Source: Candidatus Poribacteria bacterium
Lineage (GTDB): Bacteria; Poribacteria; WGA-4E; JAJDTR01
Direction of reading: 5' to 3'
DNA length: 64,000 nucleotides
Assembly (NCBI GenBank): GCA_965220415.1
Contig: OZ244829.1
Span: 2,799,483 to 2,863,482 of the forward strand
This document shows, piece by piece, positions 272 through 62,243 of this stretch. Numbering within the stretch: the stretch's first letter is position 1; each line of letters begins with the position of its first letter. The notes below the pieces were generated by a model. It was not told where the DNA came from and ran no database searches. It saw only the letters and a list, made by a program, of their open reading frames with translations. Both the position numbers and the translations under genes were made by a program.

Positions 272-296
272 GTCGCGACCTGGAGATCGCTCCTAC
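272..296. repeat. REP family-1 element (GTCGCGAyyyGGAGATCGCTCCTAC; hairpin GCGAT-N6-ATCGC plus terminal CCTAC/GTAGG)
   Basis: Same ~25-nt imperfect palindrome recurs at 28059, 29020-29335, 48518, 49785, 51512, 54804 and 57750. Confidence 0.7.
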
Positions 297-309
297 GCAA
301 GGCTGGTCG

Positions 310-420
310 GAAGGATCTCTATCAGGATTTACTATGGGATCTCTACCGCGGGAACTCCTATCGGTCAGTTGCTCCTTCGCTATCCGCTCAGTTGATCTAT
401 TCGGTCGGTTGATTTACTAC
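310..420. repeat. REP family-2 cluster (units resembling GGGATCTCTATCGCGCTCCTTATTCAGTCGCTTGATC)
   Basis: Degenerate tandem copies of a ~35-nt unit that recurs in more than 20 intergenic spacers of this window. Confidence 0.7.
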
Positions 421-653
421 AGGAGTTGGGTTTCACTCTAATTTTCCGCGTTTTCAGGTAGATTGTAACGTCGGAAGTCCTCTTGCTATGCGGAATCTGT
501 TTTGGATTTTCGTTCAACCCAACCTACGAAGTTAGCTTGACCTATTCACTCGCTTGAGCCTACCATACAGATCCTTGCTGCAGGGGATTTCAGCGCGACT
601 TGGAGAGGGTTGAGGAACGCAAATCTGCGTTCCCTACTGTAAGGAGAACGACC

Positions 654-60290: not shown

Positions 60291-60294
60291 AGCG

Positions 60295-62109
60295 ATGAAT
60301 CTTCGATTGATAATCACACTCGGTCTTTTGGTCTATATCGTTCTAGGGAGCGTTGTCCTTGCGCAACCTGTCCATTTCCCCGACCCGATTCTACGGTCTG
60401 CCGTCGCCAGGGCGATCGGCGTCAATCCCGACCGCATCACCGTCGCTGCCTTGCAGCGTCTTACGCGGTTGGATGCGGTTGACAGCGTGATTGAGAGTCT
60501 CGAAGGACTCCAGCATGCTCCAAATCTGAGACTCTTGGATTTGGCGAACAACCGCATTTCCGATTTGACCCCGATTGCCGGTCTTAGCGATTTGGAAGAG
60601 TTGGGGTTGGACAGGAACGTTATTAAAGACGTTTCGCCACTCGCCGATTTGATAAATCTCCTAGTGTTGACTATTGAGTATAACCTAATAACCGATGTGG
60701 AGCCGTTGCGCAATTTAACGAATCTTAACGTGCTTAAGATAGAGGGCAACTCTATAATTGACCATTCCCCGCTCGACGGATTAGCGATCGACATCTTTAC
60801 CTACGACCAAATCTGCGACATGTCAGCGGAACCGCTTGAGCCGCGTCTTGAAAACCGTTCCTTCCCGTCCGTCTTTGCTTCTTTTACCGCGCAGATTGTG
60901 AACAAAGACGAACACTGGACAGTTGAAACGCCGTACCATGATTTGATTTTCACCGGGCACATTTTCACGGACGGTTTTCGGGTGTTTGACGGGGAATGGC
61001 ATATTACCGGCGTCTTTCCGCACATGGTTGACCTCCGCGACCAATTCCTCGCCCGCAACCCCAACATGATTTTCCTATTCGAAGTGCGAATCTACAACTC
61101 TGGCGGCACCTCACCGTCCAACGCTTTCCCGGACGACCACCCGTATTGGCTTCGGGATGCGAACGGACAGATAGCATCCGAGGGTGAGCGTCGCTTAATC
61201 AATTACGCTCACCCCGATGTTCAAGACATTATCGTGGGACAAGCGCTTGCTGTCGCCAAGTGCGGACTCTATGACGGCGTGTTCTTCGACCACTGGAACG
61301 ATTTCGGTTCAGTCGGCAATCTAATCTCCCTTGAAGAAGCCCAACGCGCCCGTGCAAATATCGTCCGGCGCATACGTGAAGGAGCACGCGACACTTTCCT
61401 GATAGTGGGCAATACGAACGACCGCATTATTCCCCTTACTGGTCACATGGTGAACGGCGCTTATATGGAGTCTATCGTGCCGGCGCCCGGTGTACCGAGA
61501 AATCTGTCGATTCGCATTGTTCGGGACTCACTTGAATGGCTGGAATCCAACCTGCGCGAACCTCGTTTGGTTATGCTGCAGGGCGGCACGGACCGGAGTG
61601 AACCGCCGGATAGCCCGTACAACCAACGGCTCATGCGAGCCACGACCACGATGAGCCTCACCCATTCCGATGGTTACACGCAGTTCGGTATAGACTCTAG
61701 TGACAATAAGTTCTGGTACGATTTCTGGGATGCCGACTTGGGGCGTCCGGTAGGACCGAAATTCCAATTCTACGAAGAAATCGAGGGACTGTATATCCGG
61801 GAATTTACGAACGGTTGGGCGGTATATAACCAGAGCGGCGAAGCGCAGGTTATAACGCTGCCTGAGGAGGTGCAGGGCGTCGCTAGCGGGCATTTGGGAA
61901 CAGAACACGCGCTGGGAAACATTGACGGGGAGATGTATTTGCGGGTGAAACCGGTGAATCCAGCGGATGTGAATAAGGACGGAGTGGTGAATATCTTGGA
62001 TTTGACGATTATTGCACAAGGGTTTGGCACGGATAGCTTGAAGGGGGATGTGAATCGGGACGGGGTTGTCAACATCCTTGATTTGGCGTTTGTAGCGGAC
62101 CAATTCTAA
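60295..62109 (+). CDS. Secreted LRR / TIM-barrel-hydrolase-like / dockerin protein (third paralog)
   Basis: RBS aggagaaag upstream of ATG 60295. Signal peptide MNLRLIITLGLLVYIVLGSVVLAQ. LRRs. AVAKCGLYDGVFFDHW. C-terminal DVNKDGVVNILDL / DVNRDGVVNILDL. Confidence 0.8.
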   Translation: MNLRLIITLGLLVYIVLGSVVLAQPVHFPDPILRSAVARAIGVNPDRITVAALQRLTRLDAVDSVIESLEGLQHAPNLRLLDLANNRISDLTPIAGLSDLEELGLDRNVIKDVSPLADLINLLVLTIEYNLITDVEPLRNLTNLNVLKIEGNSIIDHSPLDGLAIDIFTYDQICDMSAEPLEPRLENRSFPSVFASFTAQIVNKDEHWTVETPYHDLIFTGHIFTDGFRVFDGEWHITGVFPHMVDLRDQFLARNPNMIFLFEVRIYNSGGTSPSNAFPDDHPYWLRDANGQIASEGERRLINYAHPDVQDIIVGQALAVAKCGLYDGVFFDHWNDFGSVGNLISLEEAQRARANIVRRIREGARDTFLIVGNTNDRIIPLTGHMVNGAYMESIVPAPGVPRNLSIRIVRDSLEWLESNLREPRLVMLQGGTDRSEPPDSPYNQRLMRATTTMSLTHSDGYTQFGIDSSDNKFWYDFWDADLGRPVGPKFQFYEEIEGLYIREFTNGWAVYNQSGEAQVITLPEEVQGVASGHLGTEHALGNIDGEMYLRVKPVNPADVNKDGVVNILDLTIIAQGFGTDSLKGDVNRDGVVNILDLAFVADQF

Positions 62110-62115
62110 ATCGCT

Positions 62116-62243
62116 GTAGGAACGATCAACCGACTGATTAAGGAGGGATTAAAGGAGCGAATAGATCAAGCAAACGAATAGTGAGCGCGATAGGGATCCC
62201 ACTGCGATAGAAAATCCCGATAAGGTTCCCATAGAGATCCCTG
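62116..62243. repeat. REP family-2 cluster (reverse orientation, three units)
   Basis: Sequence gtaggaacgatcaaccgactgattaaggaggg...gatcaagcaaacgaatagtgagcgcgatagggatccc...gcgatagaaaatcccgataaggttcccatagagatccc. Confidence 0.7.

Follow-up and report, generated by a model that had tools for sequence, protein, structure and literature searches.

The spacers of a 64-kb stretch of a Candidatus Poribacteria chromosome (the window) are rich in short repeats headed by GTAGG, and one gene among them encodes a tyrosine transposase of the kind associated with repetitive extragenic palindromes (REPs), a RAYT. Does this single RAYT serve all of the repeats, or do most of them belong to related enzymes encoded elsewhere? 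The original prediction had left both options open. We compared the repeat families of the window (the four predicted ones, Families 1 to 4, and a fifth) with those of relatives labelled L001, L002 and so on, of which L001 is a near-identical metagenome contig, L002 (OZ240209.1) the closest complete genome and L003 the next closest. The answer that we consider quite probable is a multi-family system of REPs, REP doublets forming hairpins (REPINs) and RAYTs, that is, a set of REPtrons in which Family 1 is cognate to the window RAYT and the other families are cognate to paralogs elsewhere.

All four predicted consensus sequences recurred in the window far above chance. The Family 1 25-mer matched 12 times at up to 3 mismatches and never in 100 shuffles, Family 3 matched 4 times, and Family 4 matched 7 times in either orientation. 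Family 2 had 4 near-exact matches and 28 units by a profile search (profile made from 13 copies; nhmmer, E ≤ 0.01), nearly all of them in spacers. GTAGG or its complement CCTAC, which ranks second among the over-represented pentamers of the window, occurred 58 times in 12.1 kb of non-coding DNA plus gene edges and 51 times in 51.9 kb of coding DNA, a ~5-fold difference in density on a crude gene map. By our tally ~43 of the 58 non-coding sites fall in recognisable repeat units, which bears out the predicted figure of more than 30 loci. A perfect stem of at least 6 bp directly followed GTAGG at 19/58 non-coding and 2/51 coding sites, compared with 9.6% of random non-coding positions that start such a stem. 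The outermost units, at 272-296 and about 62117-62243, lie at the two ends of the predicted repeat span, 272-62243. At least one family member was present in 23 of the 36 internal spacers of at least 60 nt and in 20 of the 24 of at least 200 nt, so the claim of saturated spacers holds for the occupancy of long spacers but not for their bases, only ~21% of the non-coding bases being repeat. The claim of at least four palindromic families likewise needs amending: there are more than four, including a Family 1 variant, one further GTAGG hairpin family (the fifth) and several GTAGG-free repeats, but Family 2 is not palindromic and the Family 1 25-mer is a weak hairpin on its own. A scan of the whole window against Rfam at gathering thresholds gave no match, so the repeats correspond to no curated RNA family. 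The window families recur in 61 kb of the closest genome. All folds below were computed as single-stranded DNA, with z scores against shuffles.

The window RAYT and its Family 1 doublets

The gene at 28363-28836 matched Pfam Y1_Tnp (5e-10) and, at 125.9 bits, NCBIfam NF047646 (REP-associated tyrosine transposase; cutoff 80 bits), as well as PDB 4er8, the E. coli TnpArep structure (E=1.5e-7). Among 27 homologs the HUH histidines H70 and H72 and the Y-x-Y-x-N block (Y130, Y132, N134) were invariant; conserved motifs are PDHVH and IRYCYENPVRKGLV, and the Tyr block reads YCYENPVR. On these features the gene is a true, intact RAYT, as predicted, and its product is a putative HUH/Y1-type single-strand-DNA nuclease and strand-transferase. 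Its homologs are numerous, and those with names are from Candidatus Poribacteria. The gene sits between two 119-nt tandem arrays, and Family 1 is the only family that flanks it. The gene, the arrays and all Family 1 elements are as follows.

28363..28836, minus strand: RAYT gene, 157 aa, with its TAG stop inside the GTAGG head of the adjoining REP (CCTAC on the plus strand)
28046..28366, plus strand: tandem array of 2.7 units of 119 nt (Tandem Repeats Finder, TRF, 95% matches), Family 1 REPIN and 49-nt linker
29018..29315, plus strand: tandem array across the RAYT from the first, 2.5 units of 119 nt (TRF, 85% matches), Family 1 REPIN and linker
28059..28128, plus strand: Family 1 REPIN doublet whose GTAGG gives the TAG stop of gene 27145-28062
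28178..28247, plus strand: Family 1 REPIN doublet, GTAGGAGCGATCTCCGAATCGCGAC, 20 nt, GTCGGGAATCGGAATTCCCTCCTAC
28297..28366, plus strand: Family 1 REPIN doublet adjoining the RAYT stop codon
29019..29088, plus strand: Family 1 REPIN doublet
29138..29207, plus strand: Family 1 REPIN doublet
29258..29365, plus strand: Family 1 left arm headed by GTGGG and, after it, a right arm holding a Family 2 module
28940..29010, plus strand: Family 1 right arm enclosing a Family 2 module, GTCGGGAATTGGGA[GGAATCTCTATCG..GGTTGATC]CCTCGTAC
48518..48542, minus strand: exact single Family 1 REP overlapping the final codons of the AAA-ATPase open reading frame (ORF) 48501-49742
51500..51546, minus strand: Family 1 REP with a degenerate inverted partner (fold z -2.7)
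54804..54828, plus strand: Family 1-like REP, 3 mismatches
57750..57774, minus strand: exact single Family 1 REP
272..296, minus strand: Family 1 variant GTAGGAGCGATCTCCAGGTCGCGAC, the REP type that flanks another RAYT clade (L041, L045)
49785..49809, minus strand: Family 1 variant GTAGGAGCGATCTCCAGGTCGCGAC whose GTAGG gives the TAG stop of gene 49806-51404

Beside the RAYT every Family 1 REP has an inverted second arm, GTCGGGAATCGGAATTCCCTCCTAC, 20 nt away, which makes Family 1 a REPIN-type doublet. The five doublets occur only there; the dispersed copies of Family 1 are five single REPs, of which one has a degenerate partner. The two arms, GTAGGAG-CGATC-TCCGA-ATCG-CGAC and GTAGGAG-GGAAT-TCCG-ATTCC-CGAC, differ by compensatory stem changes (CGATC/ATCG versus GGAAT/ATTCC). 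The 74 nt at 28176-28249, which contain one of the doublets, folded at -21.2 kcal/mol (z -5.55); the 25-mer alone, which has a 5-bp stem, folded no better than shuffles (z -0.8). Both arrays have the pattern of bacterial interspersed mosaic elements (BIMEs), that is, REP, inverted REP and linkers in consecutive tandem copies; the 205-nt composite units of L045 show it too. Every unit of the left array holds the final 17 nt (..CCACGAACTACGGTAG) of the neighbouring aldo/keto reductase gene (27145-28062), which suggests that the arrays grew by local tandem duplication and not by transposition. The number of units beside the RAYT differs among the window and its relatives.

L002 and L003 keep the gene order of window positions 20.8-40 kb at gene nucleotide identities of 82-91%, and their RAYTs are 90% and 85% identical to that of the window, respectively. 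The RAYT, the Family 1 REPIN and the gene neighbourhood are common to both, including both immediate neighbours of the RAYT, for which a protein-level search gave matches in L002 and L003 only. The composite at 29258..29365 is also present at the orthologous place in L002.

Across Poribacteria the repeats beside a RAYT track the RAYT itself. A scan of species-representative genomes gave 80 listed RAYT loci, nearly all from Poribacteria metagenome-assembled genomes, besides 23 further candidates, and 66 loci possessing a flanking-repeat consensus were compared. The consensus followed RAYT clade, and RAYT distance correlated with REP distance (Mantel Spearman r 0.48, reached by 0 of 2000 permutations), the co-variation for which the prediction had proposed to look. 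REPs of the clade of the window RAYT are GTAGGAGGGAAyTCCGATTCCCGA and GTAGGAGCGATCTCCGAATCGCGA, those of a second clade GTAGGAGCGAGCTGTGCTCGCGAT and those of a third GTAGGAGCGACCTCCCGGTCGCGA or GTAGGAGCGATCTCCAGGTCGCGA, while other clades have GTAGGCGGGGCATCTTGCCCCGCC, GTAGGAGGGCTTTGTAAGCCCGAT, GTAGGTTCGGTTTTTAACCGAACC and GTAGGCGCGTTTTGTAAACGCGCC. A paralog count, also proposed, found at least three RAYTs in OZ240209.1 (L002, L039, L072), no two of which share a GTAGG REP. The paralogs of one genome differ widely (54-62% identity to the window RAYT) and are not recent copies. The variants at 272 and 49785 match exactly the REP beside the RAYTs of L041 and L045 and so belong to another RAYT lineage. 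In L048, fifth-family repeats stand on either side of a distant RAYT, which scored 195 bits on NF047646 and is 28% identical to the L023 RAYT of the second clade. Co-variation, the paralogs of OZ240209.1, the match of the variant and the fifth family at L048 together make paralogs elsewhere a better account of the mobilising enzymes than one RAYT for all. We read the data as several RAYT lineages, probably each with its own REP and with some mixing in arrays, such that cross-mobilisation would be possible. The source genome, to judge by its relatives, probably carries RAYT paralogs too.

In the mechanism that we propose, the Family 1 REPIN would be the cognate substrate of the window RAYT, its two arms folding into one long hairpin. 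The variant GTAGGAGCGATCTCCAGGTCGCGAC, Families 3 and 4 and the fifth family would most likely be populations of divergent RAYT paralogs elsewhere in the genome, and each RAYT would recognise the shared GTAG tag together with its own stem. Family 2 would sit in the loop or replace an arm of Families 1, 3 and 4, giving mosaics like the BIMEs of E. coli. By analogy with the TnpAREP enzymes of E. coli, Stenotrophomonas and Marinomonas, the RAYTs may cut and copy these elements. The predicted cutting next to the tag is close to the published role, in which TnpAREP needs GTAG for its activity and cleaves at a CT dinucleotide 5' or 3' of the REP (PMC8266576).

Other hairpin families, repeat density and turnover

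Family 3 is GTAGG plus GGGCGAGG/CCTCGCCC, Family 4 is GTAGG plus GGTGSGCA/TGCSCACC, and the fifth family is GTAGG plus TTGGGTT...AACCCAA (GTAGGTTGGGTT...AACCCAAC; GTAGGTTGGGTTGAGC...GCGAAACCCAAC); sequence forms of Families 3 and 4 are GTAGGGGCGAGG and GTAGGGTGSGCA. All three have perfect stems of 7-8 bp, and z scores are given below with the copies that represent each family. Stem variation was compensatory: the Family 3 stem showed 125 compensatory combinations (68 A/T and 57 C/G) versus 2 non-compensatory ones, and Family 4 alternates between the stem pairs GGTGGGCA/TGCCCACC and GGTGCGCA/TGCGCACC.

23351..23373, plus strand: Family 3 REP, GTAGG and 8-bp stem (fold z -3.95)
34543..34689, plus strand: 60-nt tandem array holding three REPs of Family 3, at 34543 (stem with a compensatory A-T to C-G change), 34603 and 34664 (degenerate)
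40430..40452, plus strand: exact Family 3 REP, followed by Family 2 units ending in CCTAC at 40540-40544
7085..7109, minus strand: Family 4 REP GTAGGGTGCGCATTGCGCACCAGCC
11835..11855, minus strand: Family 4 REP
12021..12045, minus strand: Family 4 REP
26640..26664, plus strand: Family 4 REP (fold z -2.95)
26986..27010, plus strand: Family 4 REP with degenerate head ATGGG
52639..52659, plus strand: Family 4 REP
34905..34935, plus strand: fifth family, short form GTAGGTTGGGTTGAGCACAGCGAAACCCAAC (fold z -4.3)
425..527, minus strand: fifth family, long-loop form, GTAGGTTGGGTTGAAC, about 75 nt, GTGAAACCCAAC
41432..41534, plus strand: fifth family, long-loop form (fold z -2.6)
36059..36090, plus strand: fifth family, degenerate copy without the GTAGG head
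41345..41367, plus strand: single-copy GTAGG hairpin GTAGGGGTTGGGTCCCCCAACCC
59543..59571, plus strand: single-copy GTAGG hairpin with 7-bp stem and 12-nt loop (fold not significant, z -0.8)

The short form of the fifth family measures 31 nt and the long form ~100 nt (425-527 and 41432-41534 in the window, 5056-5150 in L048). The long loops are unrelated among copies, which suggests that these REPs generally tend to carry large inserts in their loops.

We ran a metagenome scan with the Family 3 pattern only. The exact REP (GTAGGGGCG[A/C]GGTTnCC[T/G]CGCCC) was present in at least 120 contigs (L082-L201) of 36-69% GC, seemingly from many kinds of sample to judge by contig names, and was often paired with GGGCGGGGnnACCCCGCCCCTAC. 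In 8 of these contigs, from other organisms, a RAYT-like ORF lies next to or around the REP (for example L105 326-868, L127 2142-2573 and L187 201-857). In several the ORF contains the REP, which encodes GRGEVTSPL and separates the HUH motif from the Tyr helix. These ORFs scored 50-59 bits on NF047646, under its cutoff, and one Poribacteria member of the group, L058, has a different REP. A literature search with the Family 3 sequence returned unrelated human papers only.

Repeat density was compared with 1.16 Mb of related loci, nearly all from Poribacteria, after exclusion of 1.5 kb on each side of every RAYT. GTAGG/CCTAC occurred 4.3 times per kb of non-coding and 0.99 times per kb of coding DNA in the window, and 3.1 and 1.15 times, respectively, in the related loci; the window value is high yet inside the range of other loci (0 to 11 per kb). 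By arithmetic, the excess over the coding-rate background is ~0.55 heads per kb of window, and all units together come to ~0.75 per kb. Over the whole genome, REP density is roughly 0.13 per kb in E. coli and roughly 0.16 per kb in P. fluorescens SBW25. The window is about 3-5 times as dense as either, so that its density, predicted to be unusually high, is high beside these two bacteria but within the range of Poribacteria. Published counts are about 600 REPs for E. coli (PMC8266576) and 1,053 units in the extragenic space of SBW25 (PMC3116915).

The repeats reach into genes as well. REPs give stop codons to about a sixth of the window genes, and some overlap gene ends. TAG ends 19 of the 45 window genes, 8 of them within GTAGG, and 367 of 1144 ORFs in the related loci (32%), 72 of them within GTAGG. 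TAG is thus an unusually common stop, and a fifth to two-fifths of TAG stops lie inside GTAGG (window, L002-L081). GTAG REPs that supply TAG stops are already reported in passages of Di Nocera et al. (PMC3733652).

Repeat sets at orthologous spacers differ greatly among the window, L002 and L003. Relative to L001, which has an identical aldo/keto reductase and 99.78% identity to the window over 11.1 kb, there was no REP gain or loss, only 3 single-nucleotide polymorphisms and one 21-nt indel. Repeat turnover is therefore real at the species scale and unseen at the strain scale, and the predicted REP-driven plasticity finds indirect backing in the wholesale turnover at orthologous spacers but none in the 11 kb shared with the 99.8% strain. 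Since they make up about a fifth of the non-coding DNA, supply stop codons and differ wholesale between genomes, the repeats are relevant in practice to gene calling, assembly and the typing of strains of this phylum.

The 21-nt indel, at 30773, is a unit of a tandem repeat at 30753-30793 (GGCATCCAGAAACAATTTGAT) that is unrelated to the REPs and apparently lies in a small unannotated ORF. A methyltransferase gene (32367-33317; block 32322-33470) is shared by the window and L001 and absent at the same place in L002 and L003, and about 5 kb of other DNA stands in L002 and L003 in place of the window block at 24.8-27.1 kb.

The Family 2 module and other window features

Family 2 is a non-palindromic, GATC-bounded module of ~35 nt and not an independent palindromic REP. 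Both GATC ends of its profile consensus GGGATCTCTATCGCgcTCgCTATtCacTCgcTTGATC are highly conserved, and the module has an internal period of 11-12 nt. Three composites showed no fold above shuffles (z -0.1 to -1.1), and the only structure is a 6-bp GGGATC/GATCCC closure with a ~27-nt loop. Family 2 is nested inside or against REPs of Families 1, 3 and 4; within Family 1 it occupies right arms at 28940, 29283-29365 and 57829-57880. The remaining units are listed here.

23242..23300, plus strand: Family 4 REP whose loop holds a Family 2 module, GTAGGGTGGG[ATCAAG..GATCCCC]TGCCCACCAGCC
334..397, plus strand: degenerate Family 2 units (nhmmer)
2976..3040, plus strand: Family 4-like stem enclosing a Family 2 module, GGTGCG..[module]..CGCACCTAC
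7132..7160, plus strand: partial Family 2 unit (profile search)
9533..9601, plus strand: Family 2 units in a degenerate tandem cluster (TRF, profile search)
9667..9720, plus strand: Family 4 ends joined to a Family 2 module, GGCTGGT[module]GCACCCTAC
11962..12007, plus strand: Family 2 unit 14 nt ahead of a Family 4 REP
13627..13698, plus strand: Family 2 units without the CTAC end
19440..19626, minus strand: Family 2 cluster behind GTAGG at 19502
23198..23232, minus strand: Family 2 half-unit in a degenerate Family 1 REP, GTAGAAGCGATC[..]TGCGAC
26818..26880, plus strand: Family 2 module in a GGTGCG..CGCACC stem with degenerate head
30421..30475, plus strand: Family 2 module in place of a Family 3 left arm, GTAGG[GATCAAG..GATCCCC]CCTCGCCC
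35038..35099, plus strand: Family 2 units
35954..36002, plus strand: Family 2 unit
40456..40544, plus strand: Family 2 units with CCTAC at their end; together with the Family 3 REP at 40430 they make an inverted pair
51458..51482, minus strand: partial Family 2 unit
52679..52698, minus strand: partial Family 2 unit adjoining a Family 4 REP
57694..57880, plus strand: Family 2 units 57694-57732, 57790-57821 and 57829-57878; the Family 1 REP 57750-57774 separates the first from the second, and the third terminates in a Family 1 right-arm head, ..TTGATCCCCTCCTAC (57829-57880 in all)
59227..59311, minus strand: two Family 2 units behind GTAGG at 59226, within the over-long 5' end of ORF 57951-59420
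62116..62243, plus strand: GTAGG, then a Family 2 cluster, as reverse complement

The junctions with the host REP vary (TTGATC joined to GCACCCTAC, GCAGTGCGCACCCTAC or CCACCCTAC), which makes recombination or slippage likelier than precise insertion. Family 2 modules are also present in RAYT-flanking REPs of L039, L045, L066 and L079, and the family is confined to a subset of Poribacteria lineages. A CRISPR-like array was rejected, the units being dispersed, degenerate and in tandem without spacers. By eye only, the module showed partial matches to the IHF site and the DnaA box, on which we base no claim.

Several further repeats occur in the window. A pyrimidine-rich repeat (CTTCCATCCTTCCAATCCTA and relatives) forms no hairpin and occurs at 34953-35031, 38700-38745 and 52760-52812, with two of the three copies ending in CCTAC and one in CCTAG. 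Short arrays of a 7-nt unit (CCACTGR) stand just before minus-strand gene ends at 19630-19670, 52829-52865 and 11680-11710. The motif TAATCCGCGATTCAGA was found at 17611-17626, where it overlaps the stop codon of gene 17622-19412, and at 62278-62311, where a 9-nt tandem repeat (TAATCCGCG x3) precedes it. A low-copy palindrome without GTAGG (GCGCTCCAGAGGAGCGC) has two copies 50 nt apart at 4077-4143 and recurs in L002 (3724, 4869), L005, L058 and L066.

Among the genes, eukaryote-like repeat proteins and recent paralog pairs, in which the window is rich, occupy 600-2843, 4720-6990, 7351-11662, 15632-19412, 60238-62109 and 62527-62975. They include a pair of WD40 proteins, each about 750 aa long; two paralogs side by side, one of which (7351-9447) encodes a VWA protein; and the genes 15632-17560 and 60238-62109, which combine LRR, GHL15 and dockerin domains and have a paralog at 17622-19412. 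One coding repeat of 66 nt in the window has no annotation, and two adjacent small genes at 55121-56157 are 96% identical over 300 nt and contain a 12-nt coding repeat (GGGTAAAGCCGA).

Competing explanations and known systems

It seems improbable to us that the window RAYT alone mobilises all GTAGG families by reading the shared GTAG(G) tag and tolerating various stems: Family 1 alone flanks it, in the window and in the orthologs of L002 and L003, flanking REPs co-vary with RAYT clade over the 66 loci, and related genomes have several paralogs, each with its own REP. Even so, GTAGG is common to all families, and a number of observations weigh against a dedicated paralog for each. The single TnpAREP of E. 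coli faces the REP classes y, z1 and z2, with GTAG essential for activity (PMC8266576), so cross-family activity is possible. At L045, 205-nt tandem units beside one RAYT combine the variant REP with a Family 2 composite and a Family 4-like REP, from which it follows that one RAYT can have more than one REP type around it, and none of the 80 listed loci has a Poribacteria RAYT flanked mainly by Family 3 or 4. The paralogs, moreover, are deduced from relatives, 64 kb of the source genome being in view; the third RAYT of OZ240209.1, L072 (9879-10351), is in two frames, which may be a real pseudogene or a long-read assembly error; and the lack of REP polymorphism relative to L001 over 11 kb gives no sign of current mobility.

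A reading of the hairpins as ordinary terminators or mRNA-stabilising stem-loops, immobile and with GTAGG incidental, is very improbable, and as the sole explanation it is already largely refuted. Most of the hairpins do lie between co-directional genes and so would be transcribed at gene 3' ends, and roles of REPs in termination and mRNA stability are hypothesised in passages of Di Nocera et al. (PMC3733652). Family members were also found, however, in 3 of the 4 divergent spacers, identical units with a fixed 5' tag stand at unrelated loci, and the repeats flank RAYT genes and co-vary with them. Terminator-like sites at 22-42 kb numbered 23 versus 20.7 +/- 4.5 in shuffles, which is no enrichment. 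No Family 3 or 4 hairpin received a terminator call or is followed by a T-run; the fifth-family element 41432-41534 is touched at its tail by a weak match (41530-41544), and the ends of Family 1 units carry two weak 5-bp matches. A mobile or recombining Family 2, acting as an element of its own and not as a passive linker, is rather unlikely, although compatible with the REPtron reading; Family 2 would then be either a GTAG REP with a long loop and the 6-bp GGGATC/GATCCC stem or a small insert that targets REP hairpins. Its units often start with GGGATC and end with GATCCC directly after GTAGG, CTAC follows within 14 nt of about a third of them, and composites exist with three host REP families. 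The Family 4 REP at 23242 holds a module in its loop, whereas at the aligned position in the orthologous spacer of L003 the Family 4 REP, which shares its left flank, is plain. On the other side stand the non-significant fold, the variable junctions without any target-site duplication seen, the restriction to a subset of lineages, and the many units that are partial and in degenerate, slippage-like tandem runs of 12 or 17 nt.

More tentatively still than the REPtrons, and with a chance that we put as low as that of a mobile Family 2, the module GGGATCTCTATCGCgcTCgCTATtCacTCgcTTGATC may be a repeat that colonises, or is templated into, the loops and arms of unrelated REP families, and/or Family 3 may be shared near-unchanged by unrelated bacteria. 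If so, Family 2 would be a repeat living on repeats, possibly created by RAYT strand transfer or acting as a protein-binding linker, and the spread of Family 3 would point to RAYT-REP pairs that are unusually strict or spread horizontally.

Most of what we describe has counterparts in known systems. Several GTAG families per genome with family-specific REPtrons are described in passages of Di Nocera et al. 2013 (PMC3733652), and P. fluorescens SBW25 has three RAYTs and three REPIN groups (PMC3116915). Published accounts, the first of them as regards those passages, also cover GTAG REPs in many phyla, dimers, clusters with flanking DNA, overlap with gene ends and REPIN clusters beside RAYTs (PMC3733652, PMC3116915, PMC8266576). 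The closest likeness is to the GTAG super-family (Pseudomonas-type GTAG-1/2), as characterised in those passages: a 5' GTAG tag, stems of 5-9 bp and short loops, several families per genome with family-specific RAYT loci, TAG serving as the stop of a neighbour, and dimers and tandem clusters with flanking DNA, mostly between co-directional genes. Family 1, with GTAG, GAG, stem, loop, stem and GAC, resembles GTAG-1/2 also in its extra bases after the tag and its 3-nt tail. The window differs from the super-family, as far as the passages on it go, in a host outside the 8 phyla named there, in a tag that is consistently 5 nt (GTAGG), and in units with a non-palindromic Family 2 insert or a 75-nt fifth-family loop insert.

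With the REPIN-RAYT system of SBW25 (Bertels and Rainey 2011, PMC3116915) the window shares inverted doublets that form one hairpin, clusters beside the RAYT, tandem REP arrays of fixed spacing and REPINs inserted in or beside REPINs; the three RAYTs of SBW25, each adjoining its own REPIN group, correspond to the paralogs proposed here. In contrast to that system, Family 1 in the window is mostly present as single REPs away from the RAYT, and the arms of its doublets carry compensatory stem differences. The E. coli REP/BIME system (Corneloup et al. 2021, PMC8266576; PDB 4er8) has REP, inverted REP and linker in tandem, as in the 119-nt arrays, several REP classes sharing GTAG in one genome, and an HUH/Tyr enzyme of the same family. 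However, the window RAYT is distant from 4er8, the bulged palindromes of E. coli differ from the perfect palindromes of Families 3 and 4 (group 3 TnpAREP type), and E. coli has a single TnpAREP where related Poribacteria genomes have several RAYT paralogs. Insertion sequences of the IS1397/ISKpn1 type target REP loops and so, like the Family 2 module, place foreign sequence inside REP hairpins, but Family 2 differs from them in being ~35 nt long and non-coding, with variable junctions and no target duplication.

A full-text literature search found no paper describing REPs or RAYTs in Poribacteria; its hits were false ones on the name of an author. The Poribacteria host is new as far as that search goes, while multiple GTAG families, family-specific RAYT loci and REP-supplied TAG stops are already published, and the current picture of REP biology is unchanged by these findings. 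As uncultivated sponge symbionts with ~60 near-complete public genomes, many RAYT clades, several paralogs per genome and readable cognate repeats, Poribacteria offer a clean data set on RAYT/REP co-evolution. Relative to the systems above, the Family 2 module and the wide spread of Family 3 are the features that could exceed the known kinds of REP.

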